DNA of 64,000 bases from Vicinamibacteria bacterium (GTDB lineage: Bacteria > Acidobacteriota > Vicinamibacteria > Marinacidobacterales > Marinacidobacteraceae). The notes under the pieces were generated by a model. The model did no database searches and was not told the origin of the DNA. It saw only the letters and a program-made list of their open reading frames with translations. The stretch covers positions 1,856,001-1,920,000 of the forward strand of contig CAXXLQ010000004.1 in the NCBI GenBank assembly GCA_963668695.2. The letters run 5' to 3'. A program made the position numbers and the translations under genes. This document shows, one piece after another, positions 8,157-57,003 of this stretch (the first letter of the stretch is position 1; every line of letters begins with the position of its first letter).

Positions 8157-8371
8157 CAGCCGGTGGTGGAACCCGCGTGAGCGCCGAGGCCGGCGAGGCG
8201 CCCGGCTGACAAGGCGCGTGAGGGAGGAGCCCCCACCGGGAGAACTGGCCCGAGTGTCTTTCGACCGAAACGCAACGATGAGCGGCGCGAAGCGACGCGG
8301 TTCAGCCGGGATGGATCGCCGGCCGAGCCCCCACCGGGAGAACTGGGCCGCGCGGGTCCCACCACCGGCTG
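8157..8371. mobile_element. MITE-like element copy 1 (21-bp terminal inverted repeats)
   Basis: CAGCCGGTGGTGGAACCCGCG ... CGCGGGTCCCACCACCGGCTG, flanked by GTAG/CTAG; core shared with four other copies. Confidence 0.75.
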
Positions 8372-8388
8372 CTAGCAGGCGGGTCACC

Positions 8389-10521
8389 ATGAGCCAGCGA
8401 GCCGTCCTGTCCTGGGACCGGTTCAAAGAGGTCGCCCGCGTACAACGCTTTCGCTTTCTGGCCGGTTGCGCACTGGCAGGGGGTCTCGCCGGACCCGTCG
8501 CGGCGAGCGCGCAGGATGAACGGCTCGAGCGGCTCACGCCCGAGCACCGCACCTGGATCGAAGAAGAGGTCGTTTACATCAACACCGACGCGGAGAGGGA
8601 CTTTTTTCTCGCGCTGGAGACGCTTGAGGAGCGCCGGCACTTCATCGAAGCGTTCTGGCGGAAGCGCGATCCGAACCCGGCGACGCTGGTGAACGAGGGC
8701 AGGGAAGAGCACTACCGGCGTCTCGGTTTCGCGACTGGCTCACTGGCCGACGACACCACCCGACCCGGCTGGAGGACCGACCGCGGCAGGATGTTCATCC
8801 TGCTCGGAGAGCCCCGGGAGCGCCAGCGCTTTGACGGCCTGAACGAGATCGTCTCGACCGAACTGTGGTTCTACCAGGGTGAGTCCGGGGTGGGGCTGCC
8901 GTCCTTCTTCTATCTCGTGTTCTTCAAGCCGCGCGACATCGGCGAATACCGGCTCTACCACCCGGCGCTCGACGGTCCGAGAAGCCTGCTGCGGGGCCGC
9001 TACGCCTCGCTGGAAACAAACGACCCGAGAGAGATCCTCCAGACTCTCAATGACGTCTCTCCCGAGCTCGGCCGGGCATCGCTTTCCTTCGACCCCAGCG
9101 ACCCCGGAGACCTCCTCAACGGCCGGGCATCCCTGGGGACCGACATTCTGCTGGACCGCATTCTGGACGCTCCGGGCCGCCGCATCCGCACGGACTATCT
9201 CGATGCGGCCCGCCGCTACGGCGACCTGGTCACTGCCGACTATTCGTTCAACTTCGTCCCGAACCGCAGCGTTTTCCGGGTGCTGCTGGCACCCGATGCG
9301 AGTTCGCTCGTGCACTACTCGATCGAGCTCGATCCCCAGGACATGGCGCTCGAAAGCGATGAAGCGAGGTCGCGTTTCTACACCGTCGTGGACCTGACGC
9401 TCGATGTGCGGGACCGGGAGGGCAATCTCGTGTACACCGAGGACCGCGAACTCATCGTGGACCTGTCGGCGGCCCAGATGGAAGCGGTCCAGGCGTCGCC
9501 CTTTGCCTTCCAGGGCGCCTTTCCCCTCGTACCGGGCGACTTCGATGCCAGCGTCGTGCTCAGGAACCGCGTCATGAAGCGGTTCACGGTGGCCGAGGCG
9601 GCCATCACCGCTCCGGGATCAGGCCCGGGCGCTCCCATTGTGGGCGATCCCATCGTCGCCTTCGAAGTGGAAGCGCATCAAGAGGTGCAGACGGGGGCGT
9701 TCGCTGACGGGCGCCGTCGCTTCCGGCCGGCGGCGGACGATCTCTTCTCTTTGGGGGAGACGCTGCTGGTGGGCGTGCAGGTCGCGAGGGCCGAGCCCGG
9801 ATCGACGCTGCGAATGACGCTCGGCAGCGGCGACGCGGCCCTGCGGGAAGTGGTGCTTGCGACCGACGACTTCCAGGACGGATCGGACTATGCGGAGATC
9901 GAGTTGGGGGACCTGGAGGCGGGCGCCTACCTTCTCGACCTCGAACTCCGGGATCCGGGCGGGACGGTGACGGCGCGCCGAACTGCCCCGGTTCAGATCA
10001 TCCCCCGCCTGGTGGCGCGTGCGAGCTACGTCCACCGCGGTGGAGCGGAGGCGGCGACTCCGGGTCTGCTGGCCTTGACGCGCGGGAATCAATACCTGGC
10101 GCTGGGGCGGTTCGAGGAGGCGCGCGTGGAACTCGAGCGGGCGGTCGGCGCGGGGGGTCCCGATCTCCCCATGGCTCGCTGGAAGCTCGCCAACGTCTAT
10201 CTGCGAAGCGAGGATGCCGATCGGGCGTTGGAACTACTGAAGCCGCTCGAGGCGGAGCACGACAGTCAGTACGAAGTGGTCGCCGGGTTGGGGTTCGCCC
10301 ACTACTTCAAGCAGGAGTTTGCTGAAGCCGCGCGCCATCTGGGGCGGGCAGCCTCGCTCCGCCCGGCGGGCACGGCGTTGCTTAACGCCCTCGGCGAGGC
10401 CCGCGAACAGTCGGGCGACCTCGAAGCGGCCCGCGCTGCGTTCGAGCGCTCGCTCGCGCTGGAGCCGGATCAGAAGGTCATCGAAGAGCGGCTGGCGCTC
10501 ATCCGGGCCAGACTGCCCTAA
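8389..10521 (+). CDS. GWxTD-domain protein with C-terminal TPRs
   Basis: WIEEEVVYI, FWRKRDPNP and GWRTDRGRMFILLGEP motifs; TPR-like helices at the C-terminus. The ORF extension to 8218 lies inside the MITE. Confidence 0.88.
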   Translation: MSQRAVLSWDRFKEVARVQRFRFLAGCALAGGLAGPVAASAQDERLERLTPEHRTWIEEEVVYINTDAERDFFLALETLEERRHFIEAFWRKRDPNPATLVNEGREEHYRRLGFATGSLADDTTRPGWRTDRGRMFILLGEPRERQRFDGLNEIVSTELWFYQGESGVGLPSFFYLVFFKPRDIGEYRLYHPALDGPRSLLRGRYASLETNDPREILQTLNDVSPELGRASLSFDPSDPGDLLNGRASLGTDILLDRILDAPGRRIRTDYLDAARRYGDLVTADYSFNFVPNRSVFRVLLAPDASSLVHYSIELDPQDMALESDEARSRFYTVVDLTLDVRDREGNLVYTEDRELIVDLSAAQMEAVQASPFAFQGAFPLVPGDFDASVVLRNRVMKRFTVAEAAITAPGSGPGAPIVGDPIVAFEVEAHQEVQTGAFADGRRRFRPAADDLFSLGETLLVGVQVARAEPGSTLRMTLGSGDAALREVVLATDDFQDGSDYAEIELGDLEAGAYLLDLELRDPGGTVTARRTAPVQIIPRLVARASYVHRGGAEAATPGLLALTRGNQYLALGRFEEARVELERAVGAGGPDLPMARWKLANVYLRSEDADRALELLKPLEAEHDSQYEVVAGLGFAHYFKQEFAEAARHLGRAASLRPAGTALLNALGEAREQSGDLEAARAAFERSLALEPDQKVIEERLALIRARLP

Positions 10522-10540
10522 CTTCCTTCACCACAGGCTG

Positions 10541-17400: not shown

Positions 17401-18851
17401 TCGTTTCCCGGCTGGTGGGCGGCGCGAGCGGGTTGGAGTCGATTCGCCTGACGGCGCCGAACTCGCCCGGGACCTACTACTACGGCGCGTGCGTGGAGCC
17501 GGTGAGCGAGGAGAGCGACACTGCCAACAACTGCTCAGCCGGCTTGCCGCTTACGGTGGAGTCGGGCGGCGGGGCGGCGGCGGATCTGGTCGTTGAGTCT
17601 CCCGAGGTGAGCAGCAATACGGTGGTTCCGGAGGCGTCCTTCACGCTGTCGGCAACCGTCCGGAACCAGGGCGCCGGTCGGTCCGACTCAACGACGTTGC
17701 GTTACTACCGTTCGTCGGACGCGACGATCTCGACGAGCGATCTGGAGGTGGGCACGGATTCCGTTTTCGGGCTGTCTGGCGGCGCGAGCGGGTTGGAGTC
17801 GATTCGCCTGACGGCGCCGGTTTCGCCCGGGACGCACTACTACGGTGCATGCGTGGAGCCGGTGAGCGGGGAGAGCGACCCCGGCAACAACTGCTCGGCC
17901 GCTGTGCCACTTACTGTGGAGGCGGTCGCCGGACCGGATCTCGTCGTTGAATCTCCCGAAGTGAGCACCAGTTCGGTGATTCCGGGGAAGGGCTTCACGC
18001 TGTCGGCCACCGTCCGGAACCAGGGCGGCAGTCGGTCGGCGTCGACGACGCTGCACTACTACCGTTCGTTGGACTCCACAATTTCGACGGGCGACATGGA
18101 GGAGGGCACGGATTCCGTTTTCGGGCTGTCAGCGGGCAGGAGCGGGTTGGAGTCGATTCGATTGACGGCGCCGAACTCGCCCGGGACGTACTACTACGGC
18201 GCGTGCGTGGAGCCGGTGAGCGAGGAGAGCGACACCGGCAACAACTGTTCGGCCGGCGTCTCGCTTACGGTGGAGTCGGGCGGCGGAGCGCCGGACCTCG
18301 TTGCTGAATCTCCCGAGGTCAGCCGGACGATGGTGGTTCCGGATGGTTTCTTCACGCTGTCGGCTACCGTCCGGAACCAGGGCATTGGTCCGTCCGGCTC
18401 GACGACGCTGCGCTACTACCGCTCGTCGGACTCGACGATCTCGACGAACGATACGGAGGTCAAGACGATTTCCCTCGAGGCGCTGACAGCCGGCGGCAGA
18501 GTGACGGCGTCAGTTCTCCTGAGGGCGCCGAGTTCGCGTGGAACGTATTACTACGGCGCTTGCGTCGATGCGGTCAGTGGGGAGAGCGACACCGGCAACA
18601 ACTGCTCGGCCGGGGTGCGGGTCGAAGTCGGATCCACGGGACCCGCCTGCACGGTCGGCCAGTTGTTGAGTCCCGGTGAGTTCTGCACGGTCGTCATTCC
18701 CGGTTTCAGCCTCACTGACAATCGGTTTCGGGTTACCTCAGACGGGCGAGGCTGTTACGAAGTCTTGTGTGTCGATGGCAGCCTGAGCCTGAACGGGTTC
18801 GTGGCCACCAAACAGAGTGACGGCAGGTGGCGGATCGACGCACTGCCCTAA
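14401..18851 (+). pseudogene. Large CARDB-repeat surface lipoprotein (Ig-like domain, Cys-rich domain, 10 CARDB-like units, Cys-rich domain) with three frameshifts (real or sequencing error)
   Basis: Lipobox-like ASGC; NRAP..YFSDPDGDTL Ig-like domain; PDLVVES...TYYYGACV...ESDTGNNCS repeats. The frame passes through ORFs 14383, 16353, 16409 and back to 16353. Confidence 0.8.
15061..18630 (+). repeat. Ten ~360-bp tandem coding repeats
   Basis: Unit starts at 15061, 15421, 15781, 16141, 16499, 16860, 17220, 17580, 17934 and 18291. Confidence 0.95.
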
Positions 18852-19067
18852 CAGCCTGTGGATAAAGTGGTGTGAGCGCCGAGAGCGGCCAGTTCTCCCG
18901 GTGGGGGCGAGGCGCCCGGCTGACAAGGCGCGCGAGGGAGGAGCCCCCACCGGGAGAACTGGCCCGAGTGTATTTCGACCGAAGCGCAACGATGAGCGAC
19001 GCGAAGCGGAGTGTTTCAGCCGGGATGCATCGCCGGTCGAACGCCGCATGACTTTGTCCACAGGCTG
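18852..19067. mobile_element. MITE-like element copy 2
   Basis: CAGCCTGTGGATAAAGT ... ACTTTGTCCACAGGCTG, flanked on both sides by CTAA (18848-18851, 19068-19071). Confidence 0.8.
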
Positions 19068-19132
19068 CTAAGGCGAGTAACCGGCTTCGGCGCCGAATCC
19101 GCCGCACCGGGGGCCGGCCGACAAGGCGCAGA

Positions 19133-23183: not shown

Positions 23184-23768
23184 ATGCCGGCGTTTCCCGT
23201 TCTGGCCGGGTGGGTGGCTGGCGTGCTATCGCTGGCCGCGTTCGTCCCTTACATCGTGGCCATTCTGCGCGGCCAGACCCGTCCGAACCGGGCCACCTGG
23301 TGGATCTGGACGACCACCGGGCTGATCTTGGGCGCCAGTTACTACTTCTCCGGCGCCGAGACCACCATCTGGGTACCGGTGAGCTACATCGTCGGCCCCC
23401 TGGTGACCGCGGTACTCAGCATCCGCTACGGAGAGGGCGGATCGACTCCCCTGGACCGCGGCTGCCTCATGGGCGCCGGCAGCGGCCTCCTGCTCTGGTG
23501 GTGGTTCAACTCCCCGGTCGTCGCCCTGGTCATGACGCTCGGCGTTGATTTCCTGGGCGCGGTGCCGACCATCCGGAAGGCGTACCGCGCGCCGCACACC
23601 GAAGACCGCCTCGCCTGGGCACTCTTCATCGCCGGGAACACCTTCAATCTGCTCGCGGTGGAACGCTGGGATTTCGCCATCGCGGTCTACCCGGTGTACA
23701 TGTTCCTGGCGAGCGGAACGATCACGGCGCTCGTGCTGCGGCCGAGATCTAGGAGCCTGTCCCGGTAA
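23184..23768 (+). CDS. Uncharacterised multi-pass membrane protein
   Basis: About six hydrophobic segments; PYIVAILRGQTRPNRATWWIW and PTIRKAYRAPHTE motifs; stop codon supplied by the MITE end. Confidence 0.75.
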   Translation: MPAFPVLAGWVAGVLSLAAFVPYIVAILRGQTRPNRATWWIWTTTGLILGASYYFSGAETTIWVPVSYIVGPLVTAVLSIRYGEGGSTPLDRGCLMGAGSGLLLWWWFNSPVVALVMTLGVDFLGAVPTIRKAYRAPHTEDRLAWALFIAGNTFNLLAVERWDFAIAVYPVYMFLASGTITALVLRPRSRSLSR

Positions 23769-23922
23769 TCGCACGGCATTTGACGGGCGATGCATCCCGG
23801 CTGAACCGCTTCGCTCTGCGTTGCAAATCGGTCGAAATACACCCGGTATTCCTCCCGATTCGCGCCTTGTCAGCCGGGCGCCTCGCCCGTCTCGGTGCTC
23901 GCACCATTACCGGGAAAGACTC
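23753..23922. mobile_element. MITE-like element copy 3 (inverted, shortest, no 18-bp inserts)
   Basis: GAGCCTGTCCCGGTAAT ... ATTACCGGGAAAGACTC, flanked by CTAG/CGAG; core GATGCATCCCGGCTGAA...CGGTCGAAATAC...CGCGCCTTGTCAGCCGGGCGCCTCGCC matches the other copies. Confidence 0.7.
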
Positions 23923-23942
23923 CGAGTGATACAACCCCAGCC

Positions 23943-30159: not shown

Positions 30160-31785
30160 ATGGACCGAAGAGCATTCCTACGCACAACCGCAGCCGGCGG
30201 CGCTGGCCTGACGGCGAACTTCGCGTGTTCCCCGTCCGCCTCCGAGTCGCCAGCGGCCGCAGGCGCGCAGGGCGAGATCCCGCCGTTCGAATTCGACGAG
30301 ATCACCGCCGACGACCTCCAGCGCATGATGGAGTCGGGCGAACACACTGCCCGCTCCATCACCGAGACATACATCGAGCGCATCGAAGCGATGGACCGGC
30401 AGGGCCCCGAACTTCGCTCGATGATCGAGATCAACCCGGACGCGCTCGAAATCGCCGATGAACTCGACGCGGAGCGCCGCGCTGGCGGACTCCGCGGACC
30501 GCTCCACGGCATCCCGGTCGCGCTCAAGGACAATCTCGACACCCACGACCGCATGACCACCACGGCGGGATCGCTCGCGCTCGAGGGCTCCATCCCGCCG
30601 CGCGATTCCTTCGTGGCCGAGCGCCTGCGCGCCGCCGGCGCCATCATCCTGGGCAAGGCCAACCTGAGCGAATGGGCCTACTTCCGCGGGGAGCGGGCGA
30701 CCAGCGGATGGAGCGCCCGGGGCGGCCAGTGCAAGAACCCCTACGCTCTCAACCGCAACCCGTGCGGGTCCAGTTCCGGCTCGGGAGTGGCGGCCTCCGC
30801 CAACCTGTGCGCGCTTACCGTGGGCACCGAAACGGGCGGCTCCATCATGTGCCCCTCATCCAGCAACGGCATCGTGGGCATCAAGCCCACGGTGGGGCTC
30901 TGGAGCCGCTCCGGCATTGTCCCCATCTCCCACTCCCAGGACACCGCCGGGCCCATGACCCGCACCGTGCGCGACGCGGCCATCCTGCTGGGTGGAGCCG
31001 TGGGCATCGACCCGCGCGACGAGGCCACGTCCTCGAGCGACGGTAACTTCCACGCCGACTACGCGCAGTTCCTCGATCCGGCAGGCCTCCAGGGAGCGCG
31101 CATCGGGGTGGCGCGCAGCTTCACCGGCTTCGATCCGCGGGTCATGGCGCTTTTCGAGGACGCGATCGCGGCGATGCGGGACGCGGGGGCCGTGATCGTG
31201 GATCCCGCGAACCTGCCTGAGTCAGCCTGGAACGACGAACTTCCCCTGCTCGTCCTCGAGTACGAGTTCAAGGCCGACCTGAATGCCTATCTGGCAACCC
31301 TGGGCCCCGACGCCCCCGTGCGCACGCTCGCGGAGATCATCGAGTTCAACGAGCAAAACGCCGAGTTGGAGATGCCCTACTTCGGCCAGGAGCGCATGAT
31401 CGCGTCTCAGGCCCACGGCCCCCTGACCGACGAGGTCTACCTGAACGCGGTGCGTACGATCCAGCGAGCCAACCGGGAGGACGGAATCGACGCCCTCGTG
31501 AACGAGCACCAGTTGGACGCCATCGTCGCACCCACCCGCGACCTGCCCTGGACCACCGACCACATCAAGGGCGACCGCCTGGACGGCGGCAGCAGCGCCG
31601 GACCGGCTGCCATCGCGGGTTACCCGGATATCAGCGTGCCCATGGGGTTCGTCTCAGGGCTGCCGGCGGGCATCTCATTTTTCGGGCGTGCGTGGAGCGA
31701 GCCCACACTGATTCGCATCGCCTACGCCTTTGAGCAGGCGACCCAGCACCGCAAGGCCCCGACCTTTGCGCGAACGCTGGGCTAG
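30160..31785 (+). CDS. Amidase signature family enzyme, Tat-exported
   Basis: MDRRAFL twin-arginine signal; GPLHGIPVALKD, GSSSGSG, GTETGGSI..P and GIKPT motifs. Confidence 0.92.
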   Translation: MDRRAFLRTTAAGGAGLTANFACSPSASESPAAAGAQGEIPPFEFDEITADDLQRMMESGEHTARSITETYIERIEAMDRQGPELRSMIEINPDALEIADELDAERRAGGLRGPLHGIPVALKDNLDTHDRMTTTAGSLALEGSIPPRDSFVAERLRAAGAIILGKANLSEWAYFRGERATSGWSARGGQCKNPYALNRNPCGSSSGSGVAASANLCALTVGTETGGSIMCPSSSNGIVGIKPTVGLWSRSGIVPISHSQDTAGPMTRTVRDAAILLGGAVGIDPRDEATSSSDGNFHADYAQFLDPAGLQGARIGVARSFTGFDPRVMALFEDAIAAMRDAGAVIVDPANLPESAWNDELPLLVLEYEFKADLNAYLATLGPDAPVRTLAEIIEFNEQNAELEMPYFGQERMIASQAHGPLTDEVYLNAVRTIQRANREDGIDALVNEHQLDAIVAPTRDLPWTTDHIKGDRLDGGSSAGPAAIAGYPDISVPMGFVSGLPAGISFFGRAWSEPTLIRIAYAFEQATQHRKAPTFARTLG

Positions 31786-32037
31786 CAGCCGGTGGATAAA
31801 GTGGCGAGAGCGCCGAGAGCGGCCAGTTCTCCCGGTGGGGGCGAGGCCCAGTTCTCCCGGTGGGGGTCCGGCTGACAAGGCGCGCGAGGGAGGAGCCCCC
31901 ACCGGGAGAACTGGCCCGGGTGTATTTCGACCGAAGCGCAACGATGAACGACGCGAAGCGGAGTGTTTCAGCCGGGATGGATCGCCGCTCGAGCCCCCAC
32001 CGGGAGAACTGGGCCGCGAGACTTTGTCCACAGGCTG
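31786..32037. mobile_element. MITE-like element copy 4 (carries four 18-bp-type inserts)
   Basis: CAGCCGGTGGATAAAGT ... ACTTTGTCCACAGGCTG, flanked on both sides by CTAG (31782-31785, 32038-32041). Confidence 0.8.
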
Positions 32038-32041
32038 CTAG

Positions 32042-32253
32042 CAGTCTGCGCCGCAGGAAGTTCTTGCGACTGAGTGGGTTGAGGGATTGTCAAGTTGTGG
32101 GAAGTGTGTTCTGGTACGGGTAGGAGGTTGAGGATGCCGACGAGATTTCGTGCGTATCAGCCGGGACAGATTCTGTTGAGGCCCCCCAATCTGAACGACT
32201 GGGTTGCAGAAATCCTCACTAACCCCACTGTCCAGGAATCGGGGTCCACCTCA
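32042..32253 (+). mobile_element. IS remnant: IS1182-like left end with transposase N-terminal stub, possibly fused to another IS end
   Basis: AGGAGG at 32122, then ATG 32134 MPTRFRAYQPGQILLRPPNLNDWV, resembling IS1182-family N-termini; the ORF stops at 32271. Confidence 0.6.
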
Positions 32254-33960: not shown

Positions 33961-33962
33961 GG

Positions 33963-34038
33963 CTGCCCGCGGTTTCGCCGCGCTCTGCGCGGCGGTGCCG
34001 GTGTGAAGCCCCCACCGGGAGAACTGGCCGGCGGTCCC
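33963..34038 (-). repeat. Two-hairpin REP-like repeat with 18-bp insert
   Basis: Minus strand: GGGACCGCCGGCC[AGTTCTCCCGGTGGGGGC]TTCACACCGGCACCGCCGCGCAGAGCGCGGCGAAACCGCG. Confidence 0.7.
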
Positions 34039-40111: not shown

Positions 40112-40239
40112 GGAGCGCCGGCCAGTTCTCCCGGTGGGGGCCTCCGACCGGCATCGCGGCCCACCGGGCCGCGAAACCGCGTACTGCTGCTCAGCCAGAC
40201 GGTGTCGCCCGCAAGGGAACGCCGACCTCCGGTCGGCAC
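40112..40239 (+). repeat. Two REP-like units, the first with an 18-bp insert
   Basis: GGAGCGCCGGCC[AGTTCTCCCGGTGGGGGC]CTCCGACCGGCATCGCGGCCCACCGGGCCGCGAAACCGCG, then GGGAACGCCGACCTCCGGTCGGCAC at 40215. Confidence 0.7.
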
Positions 40240-40677: not shown

Positions 40678-40734
40678 GATGGTTCGATCCGATGGGAGGC
40701 GAGCCCCACTGACTTCCGCCCAGTGTCTGGGACC

Positions 40735-41484: not shown

Positions 41485-41494
41485 CGGGGTCGGC

Positions 41495-42113: not shown

Positions 42114-42128
42114 TCGAAGTCGTATTCT

Positions 42129-42155
42129 CCTTACTCAAAGTCTATTAAAGTAAGG
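42129..42155 (-). promoter_or_regulatory. AT-rich inverted repeat (CCTTACT-N13-AGTAAGG) over the vapB promoter/RBS; probable autoregulatory operator
   Basis: Seen directly, just upstream of vapB and overlapping AAGGAG; type II TA operons typically autorepress at such palindromes. Confidence 0.6.
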
Positions 42156-42293
42156 TTCATTCCGGATAGGGAGTCACGGGTCCGTTTCGCCCGCCGCTGA
42201 CCGACGATGCTGTGCCCCTACCGCGACAGCGGACGCCGGCGCCAGTTCTCCCGGTGGGGCCCCTGCCTGCGGCGCTATCCGGGTTGGCTGGCG

Positions 42294-44006: not shown

Positions 44007-44120
44007 GGCTTCCCTCCACCAGCGTGGTGTGCCCATCCTACCCGGAGGGGGGCCGGCCCCTTCGTTTCGCGACTTCCTCGACGGAGAAACGCGCGCCCGA
44101 CACCGCTTGGGAGGCTGGGA

Positions 44121-45161: not shown

Positions 45162-45790
45162 CGGGTCGGCGTCGAGTCCGCCGTGATGTGCCGCGCGATC
45201 GGGACCATCCAGCCCGGCAGATGCTGACGTTCCCGTGCAAGGCTACGCTTGACGGCGTCAGGGAGTCGGCGCATCAACGTAAGGGCCACGCGTGGGTCGC
45301 TTGCGGCATCCGGCCCGAGCCACTGCAGGGCCAGTACCACCGGTGCAGCGGGCTTCCCTGACCAACGCATCTTGCGCGGAGACGCGTGACGTAGCCGGAC
45401 TGTATGACCGCCGATTCTCAGGGTCCTTGACGTCCCGTCCGTCAGGTAGTGCGGTCTGGCAGGAACGGCGTTGGTCAGACCGAGTTGATTCGCTGCAACA
45501 CTTCCGTCGGGGACGACCTTCACACCGTCACGCCGGGCCAGTGCGGCGATCGCGACATCGAGATCAGCGGGTGCCGGTCGGTTCAGAATCCAGCTCCACC
45601 GGGGGAAATCGTAGAGCCCGTGCCCGACCCGCCGGAGCTGGCCCGCCTTGACGAGACGGCTCAGAGCCTGATTCACGGCGTCGGGGCTCCCTAGATCGAC
45701 GAAGTCTCCGGGAATGCAGATCCACTGTCCCGCCTTCCGGCTTCGGACTCTTGCCATGATCCTGTCGGCGACGCTTTTCCCCTGGAGCAT
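45158..45790 (-). CDS. DUF6088/AbiEi-like antitoxin (winged HTH)
   Basis: DFVDLGSPDAVNQALSRL...LRRVGHGLY and AANQLGLTNAVPA...TDG motifs; GTGA overlap with the toxin; start ~45790 inferred. Confidence 0.85.
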   Translation of the reverse strand: MLQGKSVADRIMARVRSRKAGQWICIPGDFVDLGSPDAVNQALSRLVKAGQLRRVGHGLYDFPRWSWILNRPAPADLDVAIAALARRDGVKVVPDGSVAANQLGLTNAVPARPHYLTDGTSRTLRIGGHTVRLRHASPRKMRWSGKPAAPVVLALQWLGPDAASDPRVALTLMRRLPDAVKRSLARERQHLPGWMVPIARHITADSTPTR

Positions 45791-45885
45791 GGCGTCAGGA
45801 ATTCTATCAGAAACACTGACTCGCGGTTGTCGGGCGCACTGCGCGGTACTGCGCCCCCGTTTCCTCATTCGCCGCCCTCGGCAGC

Positions 45886-45911
45886 GATCCCGGCCGAAGG
45901 CCGGCAGTCCC
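45886..45911 (-). repeat. REP-like hairpin unit (no insert)
   Basis: Minus strand GGGACTGCCGGCCTTCGGCCGGGATC, similar to the copy at 56802. Confidence 0.55.
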
Positions 45912-46052
45912 CTGGCAACGCCCTCCGGGTGGGTTGCCCCGCTATCCACTGGATCCTCGGGGCGGACGGATGGAGGTCTCTTCCAACTCCCGTCCGTGAC
46001 GACTCGCTACGCTACGCGCCGTCGGTCGGCGCGCTGCTAACGTCCACCGGAC

Positions 46053-49000
46053 ATGCCGGATCGATACCCCACCCGTCTCGCTCTCTGGCTGGCCCTGGGC
46101 CTCCTGCCGCTGGTCCCGGAGGCCGTCCCCGCGCAGCCGGTTACCCCGGACCCCGCGCACCTGAGTGGTCTCCAGTGGCGCACCATCGGCCCCGACGGGA
46201 ACCGGCTGAGCGCCGCCACCGGGGAATGGGGCAACCCCGATGTCATCTACTTCGGGGCGGCTTCGGGCGGCATCTGGAAGAGCAGCGACCGCGGGATCAA
46301 CTGGGAGCCGGTCTTCGACGACCAGGATGCCGCCTCGATCAGCGCCCTGGCCGTGTCCCCTTCGCACTCCGGCCACGTGTGGGCCGGCACCGGGGAGACG
46401 TTCATCATCCGTCCGGCGCTCGCCATGGGGAACGGCGTCTACCGCTCCACCGACGGCGGCCGCTCCTTCCATCATCGGGGCCTCGAGGCCACCGGACGCA
46501 TCGCCCGCATCCTGGTCCATCCGGAAGATCCGGATCTGGTGTACGCCTGCGCGCTCGGCCACTCCTACGCGCCGCAGCCGGAGCGCGGCGTCTATCGCAC
46601 CCGGGACGGCGGGGCGAACTGGGAGTTGGTCCTTCACGTGGACGAGAACACCGGCTGTTCCGACCTGGCGATGGACCTCCGTCACCCCGAGCGGCTGCTC
46701 GCCGGGATGTGGCAGCTCCAGATCAACACCGGCGGCCTGCGAAGCGGCGGCCCGGGAAGCGGCGTGTACCGCTCCCGAGACGGCGGCGATACGTGGGAAC
46801 GGCTCTCCGGCGCGAAATCGAACGAGGAGGGCGCCACTGGCGGGGGTAGGGCACTGCCGGGCGGAGAGGCGCACCCCGTCGGCAAGGTCGCGGTGGGGAT
46901 CGCCCCGAGCGACCCCGACCGCTGGTACGCCCTGATCGAGGACGAGAGTCCCGGCTTCTACCGTTCCGATGACGGCGGCGACGCCTGGCGGCTCATGATC
47001 ACCCACCACGACCTCGCCGAACGCGCTCCCTACTACGTCCGGCTCGCGGTGGACTCGGCGGACGCCGACCGCGTCTACTTCGCCTCTGTGCTCTTCAGCA
47101 TCACGGTGGATGGGGGCCGCACCCTGGTCGAGACGTCATACCGCGCCGGCGGCGACAACCACGACGTCTGGGTGGATCCGTGGATGCCGGAGCGCATCCT
47201 GGTCGGCCACGATGGCGGCGGCAGCATCTCCGAGAACCGCGGGGAAAGCTGGCGCCGGGTGGTTCCGCCGGTCGCCCAGATGTACCACGTCACGGTCGAT
47301 GACCGGATCCCCTACCGGGTGTACGGAAACCGCCAGGACGGCTACTCCTACCGGGGGCCGAGCCGCACGAGCGGCGGCGGGATCCCGCTTGGGCTCTGGG
47401 AGGGGGTCGGCGGCTGCGAGAGCGGTTGGGCTACCCCGGAACCCCACGACGACAACGTCGTCTGGTCCGGCTGCTACGACGGTGGGCTGGAGGTGTACGA
47501 CGACCGCACCGGCCACGTCCGCGACGTGCGGGTGTGGCCGGAAGCCGGGTACGGCTGGGCGCCCGCGGACCTGAAAGTCCGCTGGCACTGGAACTTTCCG
47601 ATGGTCCTCTCGCGCCACGAGCCCGGAACGACCTGGGTCGGAAGTCAGTTCGTGCACGAGAGCAGCAATCGCGGCCAGTCGTGGAACACCATCAGCCCCG
47701 ATCTCACCACGAACGACAAGGCCCGCCAGCAGGACTCCGGCGGCGTCACCGTGGACAACCTGTACACCTTTGACGGTTCGGTGCTCTTCGCCCTCGCGGA
47801 GTCTCCCGGGCAGGCCGGTCGGCTCTGGGCCGGAAGCGTGGACGGGAAGGTTCACGTGACGACCGACGGAGGCGAGACCTGGCTCGACCGGAGCGGGAAC
47901 GTGCCGGGGCTCGACCAGGACGGTTGGATCAAGTTCATCGAGCCCTCCCACCACGATCCGGAAAAGGCCTACGTGGCGGTGAGCTGGCACCAGTCCGGCG
48001 ACTTCCGCCCGCACATCTTCCGCACCCGGGATCTCGGCGAGAGCTGGGAACGGATCAGCGGCGGGATCCCCGAGTCGCCCTTCTCGTTCGTCCACGTGGT
48101 CCGGGAGGACCGCGCACGGGCGGGTGTCTTGTTCGCCGGCACCGACAATCGGGTCTGGGCCAGCCTCGACGACGGAGCTTCCTGGTTCTCGCTCCAACTT
48201 GACATGCCTCCGGCCCCGATCTACGGAATCGTCATCCAGGAACGCTTCGACGACCTGGTGGTCGCGACCTACGGCCGGGGCTTTTTCATCCTCGACGGCA
48301 TCGGGCCGCTCCGGGGCCTTGCCGAGGCCTCCGGCGAAAAGCTCCGGGTTTTCGATTCGCCGGTTGCGTGGAGGTTCCTGCCCCGTCAGTCCATCAAGTC
48401 CGAACCCGGCAGCCTGGTGACCGGCCGAAACCCTCCCTATGGCGCCGCGATTTCCTGGTGGCTCGATGAGGATGCCGCGGCGGCCAGCGCCGAGGTGGCC
48501 ATTGTGGACGGCGAAGGCGAGGTGGTGCGCACCCTCCAGGGCCCCGGTGAAACCGGTCTCTCGCGGGTCACCTGGGATCTCCGCGGCGAGACTCCCGAAC
48601 GAGCGGTGCTTCGTACCCGGCCCCCCGACCGGGATTGGGTGGAACTCGGCGAGGACGGCGAGCGCCGGATACGGACCTGGGACCTCGATATCTTCCCCGG
48701 CTACCGCGGGCTGCTGCTGCCCCCCGGGTCCTACACCGCCCGGGTCACGGCGGGGGACCACACGGCCGAAACCACGCTGCAGGTGGAAGCCGATCCGGCG
48801 TCCGCCGCGACCCCCGACGACATCCTGGCCAAGTACGAGTTTCTGGACGCCATCCACGCCCAGTTGAACGAACTGGCGGAGATGGTGGACGAACTCGAGT
48901 GGGTGCGCCGGGAGATCGAGGGACTCCAGGAGCGCCACGCCGGCGATGAACGGTTCCGGGCCGTGCTCGAGAGCGCCGGGGAGATCGCGGGAACGGCCAT

Positions 49001-49274
49001 CGCCATCGAAGGGCGATTCTTCGACGTGGGGCTCACCGGGGCCCGCGAGGACGCCTTCCGGGCGCCGATGCGTCTCTTCGGGCGCCTCGGCGCCCTCGCG
49101 AACGACGCCGGCTGGGACGGCGCCGATTTCGCACCGACCGACCAGCAGCGGGAAGTCCACGAGATCCTCAGCGAGCGCTTCGAGACTGCCCGCGCGGAGT
49201 ACCGCCGGTTGATGGCGACGCAACTGCCACCCTTCTGGCAGGCGCTTGCCGAGGCGCGGGGAAGCAGCCCGTGA
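46053..49274 (+). CDS. BNR/Asp-box (VPS10/sortilin-like) repeat protein, putative glycosyl hydrolase
   Basis: LQWRTIGP, repeated S.DGG.TW Asp-boxes, DLVVATYGRGFFILD; stop codon lies inside the MITE end. Confidence 0.85.
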   Translation: MPDRYPTRLALWLALGLLPLVPEAVPAQPVTPDPAHLSGLQWRTIGPDGNRLSAATGEWGNPDVIYFGAASGGIWKSSDRGINWEPVFDDQDAASISALAVSPSHSGHVWAGTGETFIIRPALAMGNGVYRSTDGGRSFHHRGLEATGRIARILVHPEDPDLVYACALGHSYAPQPERGVYRTRDGGANWELVLHVDENTGCSDLAMDLRHPERLLAGMWQLQINTGGLRSGGPGSGVYRSRDGGDTWERLSGAKSNEEGATGGGRALPGGEAHPVGKVAVGIAPSDPDRWYALIEDESPGFYRSDDGGDAWRLMITHHDLAERAPYYVRLAVDSADADRVYFASVLFSITVDGGRTLVETSYRAGGDNHDVWVDPWMPERILVGHDGGGSISENRGESWRRVVPPVAQMYHVTVDDRIPYRVYGNRQDGYSYRGPSRTSGGGIPLGLWEGVGGCESGWATPEPHDDNVVWSGCYDGGLEVYDDRTGHVRDVRVWPEAGYGWAPADLKVRWHWNFPMVLSRHEPGTTWVGSQFVHESSNRGQSWNTISPDLTTNDKARQQDSGGVTVDNLYTFDGSVLFALAESPGQAGRLWAGSVDGKVHVTTDGGETWLDRSGNVPGLDQDGWIKFIEPSHHDPEKAYVAVSWHQSGDFRPHIFRTRDLGESWERISGGIPESPFSFVHVVREDRARAGVLFAGTDNRVWASLDDGASWFSLQLDMPPAPIYGIVIQERFDDLVVATYGRGFFILDGIGPLRGLAEASGEKLRVFDSPVAWRFLPRQSIKSEPGSLVTGRNPPYGAAISWWLDEDAAAASAEVAIVDGEGEVVRTLQGPGETGLSRVTWDLRGETPERAVLRTRPPDRDWVELGEDGERRIRTWDLDIFPGYRGLLLPPGSYTARVTAGDHTAETTLQVEADPASAATPDDILAKYEFLDAIHAQLNELAEMVDELEWVRREIEGLQERHAGDERFRAVLESAGEIAGTAIAIEGRFFDVGLTGAREDAFRAPMRLFGRLGALANDAGWDGADFAPTDQQREVHEILSERFETARAEYRRLMATQLPPFWQALAEARGSSP

Positions 49275-49479
49275 ACAAAGTCACGCGGCCCAGTTCTCCC
49301 GGTGGGGGCTCGAGCGGCGATCCATCCCGGCTGAACCGCCCCGCTTCGCGGGGCTCTGCGTTGCGCTTCGGTCGAAATACGCTCGGGCCAGTTCTCCCGG
49401 TGGGGGCTCCTCCCTCGCGCGCCTTGTCAGCCCGGCGCCTCGCCACTCTCGGCGCTCACGCGACTCTATCCACAGGCTG
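49265..49479. mobile_element. MITE-like element copy 5 (inverted)
   Basis: CAGCCCGTGAACAAAGT ... ACTCTATCCACAGGCTG; core is the reverse complement of copies 1, 2 and 4; target duplication not preserved. Confidence 0.75.
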
Positions 49480-49507
49480 CAGAGGAGGCGCCTCGCGCTG
49501 AGTCCCG

Positions 49508-51244
49508 ATGGCGGAAGAGCGCTCCCGTTTCGGGGTCTACAACCTGGCGGCGGCGGCCGCTCTTCTCGGTTACGGCTGGTTCGCCGCCGCCTACGGCCCC
49601 GATGGTTCCTTCCCCGGATCGGACTTCGGCTCGCTCGCCTACGGGCTCTCCCGGCAGGGACTCTGGCTGGTTCCGGTCGGGATCCTGATTCCCCTGGTTC
49701 TCCCCCGGGTGCGGAGCGTGATCACCGGGTTCTTCCTGGTCCTGCTCCCCTCGCTCGCGATCGGAGCCGTGCTGACCGCCCTGGTGGTGGCCGCACCGGA
49801 CGCCGCTCCCTGGCGGGTGCTGGAGAGCTTCGTGGTTCCGGACCTGGCGGCGCTCCTCGCGCCGCTGACCGGGATGTTCGTCGGCGTGCTGTTCGGCGCC
49901 GTCGTCGCCCGGGGACTCGGTTCGGCGCTGCTGCTGATCCCGGCGCTCATCGCGATCGCCGCCGTCCTTCTCGCGAGTGTCGCCGTGCTGCTCCTGGTGC
50001 TCACCGATCGGGTCGCGGTGACGGACCCCATCGGGCCCCCGGGATCGCCGGACGGGCAGTACCAGGATGCGTTCGCCGACTTCTATCGGCAGGGAGCGCC
50101 CGGCGCCGAGGCGACCCTGGGCGCCGCCACCTTCGCGGCCGGTTTCCGATTGGCGCTCGCGGCCGTTGGGGTGGAACCCGGAATGCGGCTCCGGGCGGCG
50201 CCGGCCGGCGATTCGATGGAAATCTCCGGGTCCATTCCGGTTTCGGTTCCGGTGTTCGGCGAACGCTTCCTGAACATCGCGGCGACGGCTCAGCCCACCG
50301 TCCAGGACGGGGAGTTCCGGGCCGGTTTCCGTTCCCTGCGGATTGGGGGGATCGAAGCGCCGTCGGTGCTCGTCCGACCCTCTTCGCGGATCCTGTCGCA
50401 CTGGCTTCGGCGTAGTGCCGCGGTGGCGGCCCTCCTCGCGCCCTTCGATGAGGTCCGGGTAGCGGATTCGACGATCGTCGTGCGCTGGAGCGAAGGGGCG
50501 GATACCACCGCGGGCGTCCAGTCCCGGGTGGGCAGCTACCTCACGCTGCTCGCCCGCGACGCTGACCTCCTGCGCAAACAGCCGGACCCGACGGCGGCGG
50601 TGTTGCGGCGCACGTTCGCCCTCGCCGCGGTCCGTTCGGTGGGAGGTAATGCGGCGGTCGAAAACCGTGCGGCGCTTCTCGCCCTCGGGGGTGCGTTCGG
50701 GCATCCCTCGCTGCTTGACCTCGCCCGGGTCCCCGGTGGCGGGGAAGAAGCCCGCGGGCTGTTGGACCGCCTCCCACTCAGCCTGCACGGGCGCCGGGAC
50801 TGGGCGCGGCATTTCTTCCTGAGCGCCGGAATCGTGCAGGTGGCGCCCGACGGGGTTTCCGGTGGGGCCGGACTCCTGAAGGAGCAACTCGACGCCGCGG
50901 CCGGGGGCACCGGGTTCTCGTTCGCCGATCTGCTCATGGATGCGGCGGGGACCCGCTTCGGGCTCGCCGCCACCGGCGACGCGGCTGGCGCCCGCTGGAT
51001 TCAGGTCCGGCTCGCCAACGGGGTCCGGGAAGACGACCTCGCGCCAGGCGACGCGGGCCTGCCCGAGGGGCTGAGCGCCGCCCGGCTGGAAGCCGAATTC
51101 GGCGGGGTAGGGGGAGAAGGCTTCCGGGTCGTCGAGGCGGAGATTTCCCGCCGGGTGGACGCGCTCCCGCTCTATCGAATGCGGCTTCCCGAGGCGGCGG
51201 ACGGCGTAGGCATCCCATCGGGTACGCTGCCCGGGACTCCATGA
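49508..51244 (+). CDS. Uncharacterised membrane protein (N-terminal TM domain, C-terminal soluble domain)
   Basis: About five N-terminal TM helices; RRDWARHFFLSAG...KEQLDA...GFSFADL..DAAG motif. Confidence 0.7.
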   Translation: MAEERSRFGVYNLAAAAALLGYGWFAAAYGPDGSFPGSDFGSLAYGLSRQGLWLVPVGILIPLVLPRVRSVITGFFLVLLPSLAIGAVLTALVVAAPDAAPWRVLESFVVPDLAALLAPLTGMFVGVLFGAVVARGLGSALLLIPALIAIAAVLLASVAVLLLVLTDRVAVTDPIGPPGSPDGQYQDAFADFYRQGAPGAEATLGAATFAAGFRLALAAVGVEPGMRLRAAPAGDSMEISGSIPVSVPVFGERFLNIAATAQPTVQDGEFRAGFRSLRIGGIEAPSVLVRPSSRILSHWLRRSAAVAALLAPFDEVRVADSTIVVRWSEGADTTAGVQSRVGSYLTLLARDADLLRKQPDPTAAVLRRTFALAAVRSVGGNAAVENRAALLALGGAFGHPSLLDLARVPGGGEEARGLLDRLPLSLHGRRDWARHFFLSAGIVQVAPDGVSGGAGLLKEQLDAAAGGTGFSFADLLMDAAGTRFGLAATGDAAGARWIQVRLANGVREDDLAPGDAGLPEGLSAARLEAEFGGVGGEGFRVVEAEISRRVDALPLYRMRLPEAADGVGIPSGTLPGTP

Positions 51245-53694: not shown

Positions 53695-55226
53695 CGTCCG
53701 GCGATCGCGTCCGGGTCTCAGCGGCGGTCCCGCTGCTCCTCGCGGCGGCCCTTTCCGCGGCGCCGCCCGTCTCGGGGGAGGAGACGTTCGACGCCGAAGC
53801 GTTCCACCGCTATGTCGAGCAGGCGGTCTCCGACTGGAAGGCCACGGGGCTGGCGGTCGCGGTAGTGCGGGGGCAGGAACTCCTCTTTGCGCGCGGCTAC
53901 GGCGTTGTCGAACTCGGGGAACCGTCAGCCGTGGACGAGGACACCCTGTTCGCGATCGGCTCAACCACCAAGGCGATGACCGCGGCCGCGCTCGGCATCC
54001 TGGTGGACGAGGGGAAACTGGACTGGGACGACCCGGTGCGCCGGCACATTCCCGAGTTCGAAGTCGGAGATCCCTGGGTGAGCGAGGCGATGACGGTGCG
54101 GGATCTCCTGACCCACCGGGGCGGCCTGCCGAACACCGACGTCTTCTGGTACGGCCAGCAGACCGACGTGGACGAGATGCTGTCGCGGCTGCGTCACGTC
54201 GAGCCGGCCTACTCGATGCGGTCGGGTTTCATCTACCAAAACGTCATGTACGCGACCGCCGGCGAGGTGGTGAAGCGCGTGTCGGGGATGCCGTGGCACG
54301 ACTTCGTGGACTCCCGCATCTTCGACCGGTTGGGGATGGATCGGACGGTGCCGCTGATTTCCCTTACCCGGGGCCGTGACAACGTCGCCTCGCCCCACCA
54401 CGTCGTGGACGGTGAAACCGTAGTCATCGAGAACGCTCCGGTGGACTCGGTCGCCGCGGCGGGATCGGTATGGAGTTCGGTCCGCGAGATGTCCCTCTGG
54501 TTGCGGATGCTGCTCGCCTCGGGAGTGGCGGCCGACGGAACCCGGATCCTGAGCGAAGACGTCGTCGAGGAGATGTTCCGCCCGCAGTCGCTCGTGGACC
54601 GTGCCGGGTTCTATCCGACCCAGCGCCTCACGAAGCCCAAGTGGGTGACCTACGGATTCGGCTGGTTCCAGCAGGATTACGACGGACACGCCGTGGACTT
54701 CCACACCGGGAGCATTGACGGGATGGTGGCCATCGCCGGACTCATCCGCGACGAGGGGGTCGGGGTCTATGTCCTCGGGAACCGCGACCATGTGGAGGTT
54801 CGGCACGCGCTCATGCTGCGGGCCTTCGATGCGCTCCTCGGATCCCCGTCCCGCGATTGGAGCGCCGAACTTCGCGAGCTCTACGACGGCCTCGCCGCAG
54901 CCCAGCAGAAGGCCCTGGAGGGGCTGCGCGCGGCGCGGGTCGAGGGCACCCGTCCTCATCTCGATCCGGCGGGCTACGCCGGAACCTACCGCCACGAGGT
55001 CGGGGGCGAGATCGTCGTGAAGGCGGACGGTGAGGGTCTCCGGCTCGATTACGGCCCGGGCCTTCGGGGCCCGCTCACCCACTGGAGCCACGAGACGTTC
55101 CGGGTCGCCTGGGACGCCCGCTGGCGGGGCGAGGCGCTGATCACGTTTCATCTCGACCCCGCGGGAAACCCGGCGGCCCTTTCCCTCGGGGAAACGCGCT
55201 TCCGGCGGATAGCCGATGCGCCTTGA
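53691..55226 (+). CDS. Serine hydrolase (beta-lactamase/AmpC-like family) with DUF3471-like C-terminus
   Basis: IGSTTK (SxxK), DLLTHRGG, YQN (YxN) and HTGS motifs; start at GTG 53691. Confidence 0.9.
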   Translation: MTSGDRVRVSAAVPLLLAAALSAAPPVSGEETFDAEAFHRYVEQAVSDWKATGLAVAVVRGQELLFARGYGVVELGEPSAVDEDTLFAIGSTTKAMTAAALGILVDEGKLDWDDPVRRHIPEFEVGDPWVSEAMTVRDLLTHRGGLPNTDVFWYGQQTDVDEMLSRLRHVEPAYSMRSGFIYQNVMYATAGEVVKRVSGMPWHDFVDSRIFDRLGMDRTVPLISLTRGRDNVASPHHVVDGETVVIENAPVDSVAAAGSVWSSVREMSLWLRMLLASGVAADGTRILSEDVVEEMFRPQSLVDRAGFYPTQRLTKPKWVTYGFGWFQQDYDGHAVDFHTGSIDGMVAIAGLIRDEGVGVYVLGNRDHVEVRHALMLRAFDALLGSPSRDWSAELRELYDGLAAAQQKALEGLRAARVEGTRPHLDPAGYAGTYRHEVGGEIVVKADGEGLRLDYGPGLRGPLTHWSHETFRVAWDARWRGEALITFHLDPAGNPAALSLGETRFRRIADAP

Positions 55227-56461: not shown

Positions 56462-56558
56462 CTGCTCTCGCCGGATCTGATCGGCGAAACCCGTAGCCGG
56501 GCGGGCATCCGTCGTCGACGCCCGACAGCCGAGCCCGGTAGCGTCGGCCGGTTGCCGG

Positions 56559-56798
56559 ACCACCTCAAAGGACCCTCGCCTCTCCGCGGCGCTCACCACC
56601 TTCAAGGTGGGCGACGTGCCGGTGGACAACATCGCGAAGGGCGTTATGGACCTTGAGCGCATCTTCATCCGCACGGTGGAGAAGCCCGATCTCTCCGCGG
56701 CTCGTTCTTCGGTCCACTTCTGCAACATGCCGGGCGAGGTGGACGGCCTCCTCCGGGCTATCCGCGACATCGCGGCCCACCAGTCCGACTACCTGTAG
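56559..56798 (+). pseudogene. Orphan C-terminal fragment of a class V PLP aminotransferase-like gene
   Basis: TSKDPRLSAALTTF...RIFIR...ARSSVHFCNMPGEVDGLL resembles the R.S.H.YN...EVD end of that family; no N-terminus. Confidence 0.55.
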
Positions 56799-56801
56799 CC
56801 T

Positions 56802-57003
56802 GGGACCGCCGGCCTTCAGGCCGGCATCGCTCCCCGCAGGGGAGCGAGAAGCGTGTTTTGGCTACCCGTGTGAAGCGCGCGGCGTAAAGAAGGGCGTATC
56901 GCCGGTCTGCTCGAAGAGCGCAGCGGGCAGGGAACGCCGACCTCTGGGCAGTTCTCCCGGCGGGGCCCGGCATCGCTCCCCGCAGGGGAGCGAGAAGCGT
57001 GTT
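56802..57003 (+). repeat. Direct pair of two-hairpin REP-like units, one empty (56802-56857) and one filled with an 18-bp insert (56930-57003)
   Basis: Both share CCGGCATCGCTCCCCGCAGGGGAGCGAGAAGCGTGTT; the second has an extra GCAGTTCTCCCGGCGGGG. Confidence 0.85.

Follow-up and report, generated by a model that had tools for sequence, protein, structure and literature searches.

How does a sequence of 18 bp come to be scattered, nearly unchanged, through the other repeats of a bacterial genome? The question is raised by a 64,000-nt stretch (hereafter the window, G000:C4:1856001-1920000) of the assembly of a Vicinamibacteria bacterium, which we call G000 (4.10 Mb in 4 contigs, 67% G+C). A first-pass annotation, made from the letters of the window alone, had reported 14 occurrences of a short motif, mostly inside a miniature inverted-repeat transposable element (MITE) or a repetitive extragenic palindrome (REP)-like unit, and had proposed that the motif is an independently mobile micro-element. 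We searched the window for the 17-mer CCCCACCGGGAGAACTG, allowing up to three mismatches, and found 15 matches. Thirteen are exact (8231, 8329, 18890, 18945, 31824, 31849, 31897, 31995, 34010, 40123, 42243, 49291 and 49389) and one has a single mismatch (56949); these agree with the 14 reported positions to within 3 bases. The remaining match, at 54701-54717, has three mismatches and lies within coding-looking sequence, and it was taken as chance and not as a real copy. In dinucleotide shuffles of the window, the same search found 0.44 matches on average and never more than 3. We conclude that the unit is a real micro-repeat of 18 bp, non-autonomous and independently mobile, and we favour, with moderate confidence, a two-layered account of its spread, in which occasional de novo copy-in at new sites is the first layer and secondary multiplication of filled sites the second.

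Genome-wide, G000 holds 1317 exact copies of the 17-mer, 651 on one strand and 666 on the other, together with 271 copies with one mismatch and 51 with two. A reversed control pattern gave no match, and the copies showed neither a replichore bias nor a strand bias. Approximately 100 of the copies fall in stretches that are present twice in the assembly, which places the non-redundant total nearer 1,200. The full unit is CCCCACCGGGAGAACTGG, 18 bp long, and lies within a conserved footprint of 20-23 bp that can be written G-C-[17-mer]-G-S-C-C. Head-to-tail pairs of units at a spacing of exactly 18 occur 148 times, and from these we conclude that the repeating unit is exactly 18 bp. The unit is non-coding and far too short to encode anything. 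As read from its sequence, it has no self-complementary arms longer than 3 bp, and in folds it pairs only with its flanks or with an inverted second unit. Because it is 18 bp long and lacks inverted ends, it does not fit the definition of a MITE, which has terminal inverted repeats, a length of about 100-400 bp and an origin in an insertion sequence (IS). No match in the window reached the gathering score in Rfam, and no contig in a viral contig collection carried the 20-mer.

Most copies lie in other repeats. The 1588 copies with at most one mismatch group into 577 clusters, and about 80% of them occupy a few fixed positions (sites S1-S5 and one reverse-oriented site) of a single MITE-like family. 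This host family is 175-275 bp long, has inverted ends, and numbers 641 copies in G000 as counted with a 15-base marker. We found no full-length IS that shares the inverted ends of the family; 19 long end pairs were of mixed lengths. Most of the remaining copies lie in REP-like units, which consist of a variable hairpin followed by a palindrome such as GCCGGTCTkmAGACCGGC. Of 328 matches to the REP-like half-site, 85 are followed by the unit and 140 by ACCGGC, the latter corresponding to ~70 empty units because each empty palindrome is counted on both strands. In folds, an empty REP-like unit forms two clean hairpins (z -3.4), the second of which is gone from filled units (z -0.2 to -1.4). Inverted units within one MITE pair as a 22-bp stem. 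The first-pass annotation had supposed that the unit prefers, or is tolerated only in, hairpin-forming repeats. This is right insofar as the sites are mostly palindromic or hairpin repeats, but insertion disrupts the REP-like palindrome and does not extend it. The MITE end that bears S2 is also found as tandem 71-bp modules, for example at G000:C4:1273661-1274412, and 109 pairs of units are spaced 71 apart; parts of the MITE thus form arrays, with up to 15 units per cluster.

When the flanks of 1587 copies were classed by uniqueness, 24 copies had both flanks unique, 134 had one unique flank, and 1429 had both flanks repeated elsewhere. Together with the concentration of ~80% of copies at a few fixed MITE sites, this last number is what would be expected if the unit had no mobility of its own, either because the MITE and REP-like units contained it from the start and some of them have lost it by deletion, or because it is an adapter or assembly artefact. 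We consider this explanation hardly credible, as the comparisons of filled and empty sites within G000 and between genomes show below.

For all copies in the genome, we matched left flanks with right flanks and measured how far apart they lie. The gaps cluster at 23 bp for filled sites (103152 flank pairs), at 5 bp (87907) and 4 bp (15599) for empty sites, and at 41 bp for sites with two units, with little between these values and no broad spread. The net differences of +18 and +19 bp that had been noted in the window are therefore borne out across the genome. Using 854 filled copies, we found 35 flank-defined site types with both filled and empty copies, and the main MITE sites each have hundreds of both (S1 has 303 filled and 290 empty). 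Alignment of the filled and empty pairs, which the first-pass annotation had recommended, confirmed a unit of 18 bp and gave a typical exchange in which a 20-mer, (G/A/C)C plus the unit, replaces 2 target bases for a net gain of 18 and sometimes 19. By junction, the exchange is 20-for-2 in 8 site types, 20-for-1 in 4, 23-for-4 in 4 and 19-for-2 in 3, and clean insertions of 18 or 19 with 1-4 bases of microhomology occur in 4 site types only. At S1 the two states are cassettes, with ATACC in 286 of 323 empty copies and GCCCCCACCGGGAGAACTGGCCC in 280 of 315 filled copies. The earlier remark that a few flanking bases often differ as well was correct, and the change is systematic.

In-frame insertions in coding sequences, which the first-pass annotation had suggested looking for, were found in a transporter gene and in an Mfd-like gene. 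The first is an AcrB-family transporter gene (ACR_tran, E 1.8e-84) at G000:C4:394435, a locus that is duplicated on C1. The unit is present in both G000 copies and in G001, the closest relative at the locus (96% identity), and exactly 18 bp are missing at this site in 19 of 19 other aligned family genomes, among them the next relatives, G004 and G008 (91-92% identity), as well as representatives of four further genera. We conclude that the transporter insertion is derived. Of the 30 loci found, 22 were aligned and the base-level reading is limited to those 22; of the eight unaligned loci, seven are their genome's best match and fall short of the query span by 12-18 bp, while the last is a weaker second match in G024. 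The empty site reads ...GAGCCCG-CG-CGGGATG... and the G000 site reads ...GAGCCCG-GCCCCCACCGGGAGAACTGG-CGGGATG..., placing the insertion at the centre of a 10-bp palindrome (CCCGCGCGGG). The encoded E-P-A-R-D becomes E-P-G-P-H-R-E-N-W-R-D, a gain of 6 codons. The second case is in G012, where the unit lies in the Mfd-like gene (UvrB_inter domain) and the G000 orthologue lacks the 18 bp. A unit in the variable linker of another gene, in G010, is ambiguous. Our gene calling by open reading frame (ORF) and codon-position GC over-calls, and it placed 569 of the 1588 units inside ORFs; 74 of these lie at least 400 nt away from either end of the ORF, and when they were inspected, the transporter locus (two copies) alone proved clearly genic. 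The genic share in G000 is ~1-3 loci among 1588 copies. The variety of site types and the insertions in genes stem from de novo block insertions, which are real but rare, and derived insertions in two unique genes contradict the idea of an original repeat module.

We extended the search to the whole genome and its relatives, as had also been recommended, and found the exact 17-mer in 21 of 41 related genomes (G000 included), with counts from 1 to 1317. All 15 other genomes of the genus carry it, as do 5 of 9 family members outside the genus, which makes 20 of 24 other family genomes overall, in 5 genera; two further families of the order, represented by 16 genomes, gave no match. A scan of one genome per prokaryote species listed at least 83 matches, mostly titled Acidobacteriota, Vicinamibacteria or 'Candidatus Marinacidobacterium', and among the matches listed those in Actinobacteria and a few other groups were single and at chance level. 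Contigs of public sequencing runs (Logan) that match the window come from seven studies, several of them labelled sponge metagenome, and the host is a sponge-associated acidobacterium. The motif's presence both in independently assembled genomes (21 of 41) and in public runs of seven studies excludes an adapter or assembly artefact, a concern that the first-pass annotation had raised.

Unit and MITE numbers are decoupled across these genomes. G000 has 642 MITE markers and 1317 units, whereas G020 has 52 markers and 1 unit, G010 has 104 and 6, and G007 has 55 and 5. Conversely, G018, from another genus, has 22 markers and 224 units, the latter being found in another REP family (GCCGGACTCCAGTCCGGC) and at a position of the MITE unused in G000. 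Among the low-copy relatives, units are found mostly in REP-like units, and the MITEs carry an empty ATACC at S1. Such MITE-rich but nearly unit-free genomes, and the empty S1 of low-copy relatives, argue against an original module with later deletions. The 17-mer itself is identical across genera despite diverged REP and MITE sequences. Two side observations come from one G018 locus, L207 (G018:C1:60593-63609). At about 1500-1800, arrays with a 44-bp period consist of half of the G018 REP palindrome plus the unit, and in places the unit is followed by a 13-bp partial duplicate bounded by CCGG.

Within G000, the occupancy of the MITE sites is highly mixed. Among the 641 MITEs, 39 of the 48 possible occupancy patterns of the five sites occur, which is a further point against deletion from one ancestral module. 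The sites are weakly associated with each other (odds ratios 1.1-3.4), and the state of S1 showed no association with backbone variants 10-45 nt away. A further comparison covered syntenic stretches of 400 kb from three sister species (~90% identity). Where flanks aligned, there were 13 presence/absence differences versus 11 shared units; the flanks of 271 unit sites did not align, and 3 sites were unclassifiable. In cluster 29, one of these differences, a REP-like remnant has cleanly gained 18 bp and the three relatives are all empty there; cluster 43 is a presence/absence difference in a MITE with otherwise identical flanks.

A closer comparison is provided by the assembly itself, which holds second haplotypes that are 97.6-99.7% identical over ~255 kb aligned: C1 versus C4:304-421 kb, C3 versus C4:3505-3538 kb, and the two ends of C4 (13.6-130 kb versus 3783-3904 kb). 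The most likely origin of these duplicate stretches is a co-occurring strain, present as haplotype contigs, together with over-assembly of one chromosome end; on that reading the small contigs may not be plasmids. The duplicate stretches also fit the 9.3% 'contamination' figure of the assembly. The haplotype pairs share 94 units and differ by 7 clean 18-bp events and by 2 partial ones (13 and 15 bp), and five of the 7 clean events have 0-3 mismatches within 90 bases. Seven clean and two partial differences against 94 shared units, at such identity, imply a turnover of unit sites of ~10x the per-base divergence. Among haplotype indels of at least 6 bp, for which 30 gap segments were listed (several per event), unit events make up a large share.

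Taken together, these patterns suggest how the second layer would work. Filled sites would multiply with the ~640-copy MITE-like family and with the REP-like units, and filled and empty alleles would be exchanged between copies by homology, which would yield ~1,300 copies and fast turnover. Most copies are secondary and come from amplification of one MITE-like family, with allele exchange between copies probably contributing. The independent mobility proposed in the first-pass annotation is thus supported by the gene insertions, the 35 site types, the decoupling from the MITE, and the sister and haplotype differences. One qualification is that de novo events are real but most of the copy number stems from MITE amplification and, probably, allele exchange, and not from hundreds of separate insertions.

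The sequence of the unit is far more constant than that of its surroundings. Its core is off consensus at 0.4% of positions versus 4-14% for the surrounding MITE backbone, so that it is ~10-30x more uniform than the adjacent backbone. A single change, A13G, is found in 169 of the 271 one-mismatch copies, across 37 context types, and is the commonest variant in other genera too, so that the variant is propagated as such. The uniformity could also mean that the unit is foremost a recognition sequence, protein-binding or uptake-signal-like, which is kept exact by selection or drive and whose spread reflects recombination of favoured alleles. The equal strand numbers and the lack of replichore bias would fit, as would a 17-mer that stays exact in 20 of 24 other family genomes and 5 genera whose host repeats differ, the fast allele turnover between near-identical haplotypes, and the presence of ComEC, which is found in most bacteria. 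We judge a recognition sequence quite improbable, because it leaves unexplained the entry of an identical 18-mer as one block at new sites and because a range of 1 to 1317 copies among relatives is odd for a needed site. Genic copies, moreover, are confined to those ~1-3 loci, the sequence has no known binding protein, and high turnover alone can account for the uniformity.

We also looked for candidate mobilisers. Profile searches of G000 gave 0 matches to RVT_1 (PF00078) and 0 to Y1_Tnp (PF01797; RAYT/HUH), and Y1_Tnp is absent too from the high-copy genomes G004 and G018. Of 28 family genomes, three (G001, G002 and G022) have a reverse transcriptase above the cut-off, and a fourth, G017, has a sub-threshold match; neither RVT_1 nor Y1_Tnp tracked the unit number. 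The TnpB-type profile (PF07282) gave only a sub-threshold match of 21.7 bits in G000. The first-pass annotation had suggested that the unit is perhaps RNA-templated or recombinase-written, and had named reverse transcriptases, HUH/RAYT transposases and IS110-like recombinases as neighbours to look for; G000 has no reverse transcriptase and no HUH/RAYT gene, and its sole IS110 targets another sequence. IS110-type genes are found in all five genomes with at least 200 units and in six others. The G000 element, at G000:C4:about 482106-483890, has a G008 counterpart at L166:13480-15260, and the insertion point in both genomes is GGAGGTC^GGCGTTCC within a REP-like unit. We rejected IS110 as the mobiliser, since its target sequence differs and its ends are unlike the unit. 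The element is single-copy in G000, but G004, G008 and G014 have 10-11 matches apiece, so it is a REP-targeting IS with activity in relatives.

Cas1 and the clustered regularly interspaced short palindromic repeats (CRISPR) were likewise rejected: both are present in G000, and the CRISPR repeat is unrelated to the unit. The CRISPR array lies in L269 (G000:C4:3274001-3294000), where 45 repeats of GGTCCATCCCCGCGCGTGCGGGGGAAGC with a period of 61 (6875-about 9600) stand beside a weak Cas1 match. A second array in L269 (2737-4132) has ~25 copies of CAGCGTGGAGTTCC... with a 53-bp period. Ku was rejected as a discriminating factor because it occurs in 27 of 28 family genomes, unit-free ones included, and so was ComEC, which G000 shares with most bacteria. 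One locus is a possible 'master copy'. At 385-440 of L270 (G000:C4:1946801-1947600), just upstream of an ORF, a unit with one mismatch precedes an inverted partial copy of itself (CCGGTTCTCCGG), and a hairpin is possible; relatives also have units at this locus (G000:C4:1947198).

Several of our observations weigh against the two-layered account. Some of the 35 site types are variants of one site, and we estimate the independent sites at ~12-15; clean gene insertions number just 2, with 1 ambiguous case besides. The genome count includes the ~100 copies from duplicated haplotype contigs, and the 7 haplotype events are unpolarised between gain and loss. At the MITE sites, the bases beside the unit are site-specific and recurrent (at S3 an A precedes the unit; at S1 GC...C stands in place of ATA), and they are reproduced in species-level and haplotype-level comparisons alike. 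Recurrent neighbour bases are a prediction of exchange between homologous copies and not of a fresh insertion each time. The MITE-site events fit repeated site-specific insertion or short-tract conversion alike, and if copies are exchanged, the high turnover may be a poor guide to how often de novo insertion occurs. Further, no mobiliser was found among the RVT_1, Y1_Tnp, TnpB, IS110 and Cas1 candidates, so that the mechanism of the first layer is one we only infer. Finally, the junctions are non-uniform, with 0-7 target bases replaced, and this variability looks more like repair than like a precise recombinase.

Heterogeneous junctions and the loss of 0-7 bases are also what generic repair, with no dedicated factor, would produce. 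Here, stalled or broken hairpin repeats would prime by microhomology on an existing unit, copy ~20 nt and return, by template switching or templated end-joining, and MITE amplification and gene conversion would do the rest. The 1-4 nt of microhomology in the clean cases, the palindromic targets (the REP-like stems and the CCCGCGCGGG of the transporter gene), and the partial events, namely the CCGG-bounded 13-bp duplicate in G018 and the 13- and 15-bp haplotype differences, are all in keeping with it. The same is true of Ku in 27 of 28 family genomes, of the lack of reverse transcriptase, Y1 and TnpB genes in G000, and of A13G in 37 contexts, as though copies served as templates, unless there are two masters. 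On the other side, the unit has the same ends in every site type examined, with no broad range of lengths and no carry-over of donor flanks seen. Ku is equally present in MITE-bearing genomes with few or no units, and therefore has no discriminating power, and the identity of the 17-mer across genera with diverged REP and MITE sequences is a further difficulty. Weighing both sides, we regard generic repair without a dedicated factor as possible but doubtful.

For the mechanism of the first layer, we tentatively propose, at somewhat less than even confidence, a trans-acting step that recognises the unit ends and is coupled to host repair, and that is neither a canonical reverse transcriptase nor an HUH/Y1 (RAYT, IS200) transposase. 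The constant ends of the block at unrelated sites point to a defined donor or to recognition of the unit ends, and the loss of 0-7 target bases points to sealing by general repair. The observed events copy a fixed sequence into mostly GC-rich palindromic or hairpin-forming repeats and occasionally into genes, the usual outcome being a 20-mer for about 2 target bases. Under this proposal, a trans-acting activity would recognise the ends and deliver a defined 18-20-nt copy into a target break or stall, and host end-joining or repair would seal it. A bolder form of the proposal, which we think rather unlikely, is that the step represents a so far undescribed DNA-writing activity. Such an activity would place a fixed 18-20 nt for about 2 bases at GC-rich palindromes without a canonical reverse transcriptase or HUH enzyme, maybe with a small processed nucleic acid as donor or template, and the small dispersed repeats (SDRs) of cyanobacteria could be a second instance.

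The SDRs are the closest parallel among known systems. SDR4-6 of Nostocaceae, which Elhai and colleagues are said to have described in 2008, are reportedly 21-27 nt long. To our knowledge, their mobiliser and mechanism have stayed unexplained since then, and we know of no other comparable case. The unit resembles them in being very short, dispersed, non-coding and in high copy, in showing filled and empty sites at orthologous loci, in its nesting in repeats and palindromes (S1-S5 and the REP-like palindromes) and in having no known mobiliser. This likeness, which the first-pass annotation had drawn, is supported by the nesting, the filled and empty sites and the tiny non-coding unit, and it is a likeness in described behaviour. 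The two differ in length (18 bp versus 21-27 nt) and in host (Acidobacteriota versus Nostocaceae); holders of the 17-mer among the matches listed carry Acidobacteriota or Vicinamibacteria titles and not Nostocaceae ones. In-frame gene insertions are documented for the unit, and G000 lacks reverse transcriptase and Y1 genes. The unit also usually replaces about 2 target bases, whereas SDR5 is reported to insert with precision into the HIP1 palindrome, after its base 3 and before its base 4 (PMC4390886). A further paper states that no SDR was found outside Nostocaceae (PMC5861425). In the literature searched there was no mention of the 17-mer or of 'Marinacidobacterium', and the papers found on small dispersed repeats included none about Acidobacteria. 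We conclude that the unit is a very small mobile repeat, as in the SDRs, in a new phylum.

Other systems share single traits with the unit. REP sequences and their doublet hairpins (REPINs), mobilised by RAYT, are short, extragenic, present in hundreds of copies, arranged as inverted hairpin pairs and disseminated within genomes, as Bertels and Rainey (2011, PMC3116915) describe. The unit, by contrast, is no palindrome, it disrupts REP-like palindromes, and no RAYT/Y1 gene was found in G000, G004 or G018. Pneumococcal BOX elements are MITE-like modular repeats with a variable number of boxB modules. The host elements here similarly hold 0 to 4 or more short modules, tandem ones included, but the unit also lies outside its MITE, in unrelated REP-like units, in the repeats of another genus and in genes. 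DNA uptake sequences (DUS in Neisseria; uptake signal sequences, USS, in Haemophilus) are 9-12 bp long, are thought to arise by point mutation and are common inside genes. They resemble the unit in being exact, in a density of about 1 copy per 3 kb, in equal numbers on both strands, in conservation across genera and in intergenic inverted pairs. The unit differs from them in its length of 18-20 bp, its entry as an 18-bp block, its near absence from genes and its thousand-fold copy variation. Templated insertions made by end-joining or fork switching are short, occur at breaks and vary in length and source. The loss of few target bases, the microhomology and the presence of Ku recall them; in contrast, every unit site has one and the same 18-20-mer, its ends unchanged. 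The defining tests for a REP/RAYT system, a MITE, an uptake sequence, an IS110 product and a retroelement product (retron, diversity-generating retroelement or group II intron) all failed, and we rejected these identities.

The usual explanation for mobile DNA is a transposase, whether encoded or borrowed, and ends tens of bases long on which it acts; the unit stands outside such schemes. It provides a second, independent system beside the SDRs, and its high copy number and its turnover between 99%-identical haplotypes make the question testable. Relatives that keep the host repeats yet are nearly unit-free offer the contrast needed for phylogenetic profiling of the responsible gene. In practical terms, units make up a large share of strain indels of at least 6 bp, break short-read assemblies and add six residues to proteins. 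The weight of the finding is limited by the existence of a precedent, by an uncultured organism and by a copy number much of which is secondary amplification.

In the window, five MITE-like elements hold 2, 2, 0, 4 and 2 units, and three REP-like units hold one each. Element 1 (8153..8376, plus strand, its ends approximate like those of the other elements) has terminal inverted repeats and the marker GGCTGACAAGGCGCG at 8204, and its two plus-strand units at S1 (8231..8248) and S2 (8329..8346) are exact 17-mers that were read in context. Element 2 (18850..19071, plus strand) has a minus-strand unit at S4 (18889..18906), exact and read in context, and an exact plus-strand unit at S1 (18945..18962); its S2 is empty, with CGAACGCCGC at 19038. 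The element without units (23750..23935, minus strand) has an empty S1 that reads GGAGGA-ATACC-GGGTGTATTT. Element 3 (31782..32042, plus strand) holds four units. Two are on the minus strand, at S4 (31823..31840, exact) and, 25 bp from it, at S3 (31848..31865), and two are on the plus strand, at S1 (31897..31914) and S2 (31995..32012, exact); in a single-strand fold, the S1 unit forms a 22-bp stem with the inverted units. Element 5 (49264..49481) lies on the minus strand, as do its exact units at S2 (49290..49307) and S1 (49388..49405). These readings match the four positions, both orientations and 0, 2, 2, 2 or 4 copies per element given in the first-pass annotation. Logan contigs over window positions 30001-50000, which come from short-read assemblies, break at the MITEs.

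The copies that had been placed in REP-like units do lie in REP-like hairpin units. That at 34010..34027 (plus strand) follows a variable hairpin and stands between GTGCCGGTGTGAAG and GCCGGCGGTCC; that at 40122..40139 (minus strand) is an exact 17-mer; and that at 56948..56965 (minus strand) is degenerate, with 1 mismatch. An empty REP-like unit at 56800..56850 (plus strand), consisting of GCCGGCCTTCAGGCCGGC and a second hairpin, is the empty counterpart of the 56930-56990 site. The exact unit at 42242..42259 (minus strand) has flanks that are both unique in G000, and at the syntenic locus G001 has a unit with one mismatch, G008 has none and G004 has another unit-bearing REP-like sequence. The description of all window copies as intergenic is consistent with the ORF map, compared at the level of the map and not copy by copy. 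Elsewhere on the same contig, self-alignment revealed a ~23-kb tandem array at G000:C4:2803874-2826790, with a period near 351 bp and copies 91-94% alike, which may be a giant repetitive gene.

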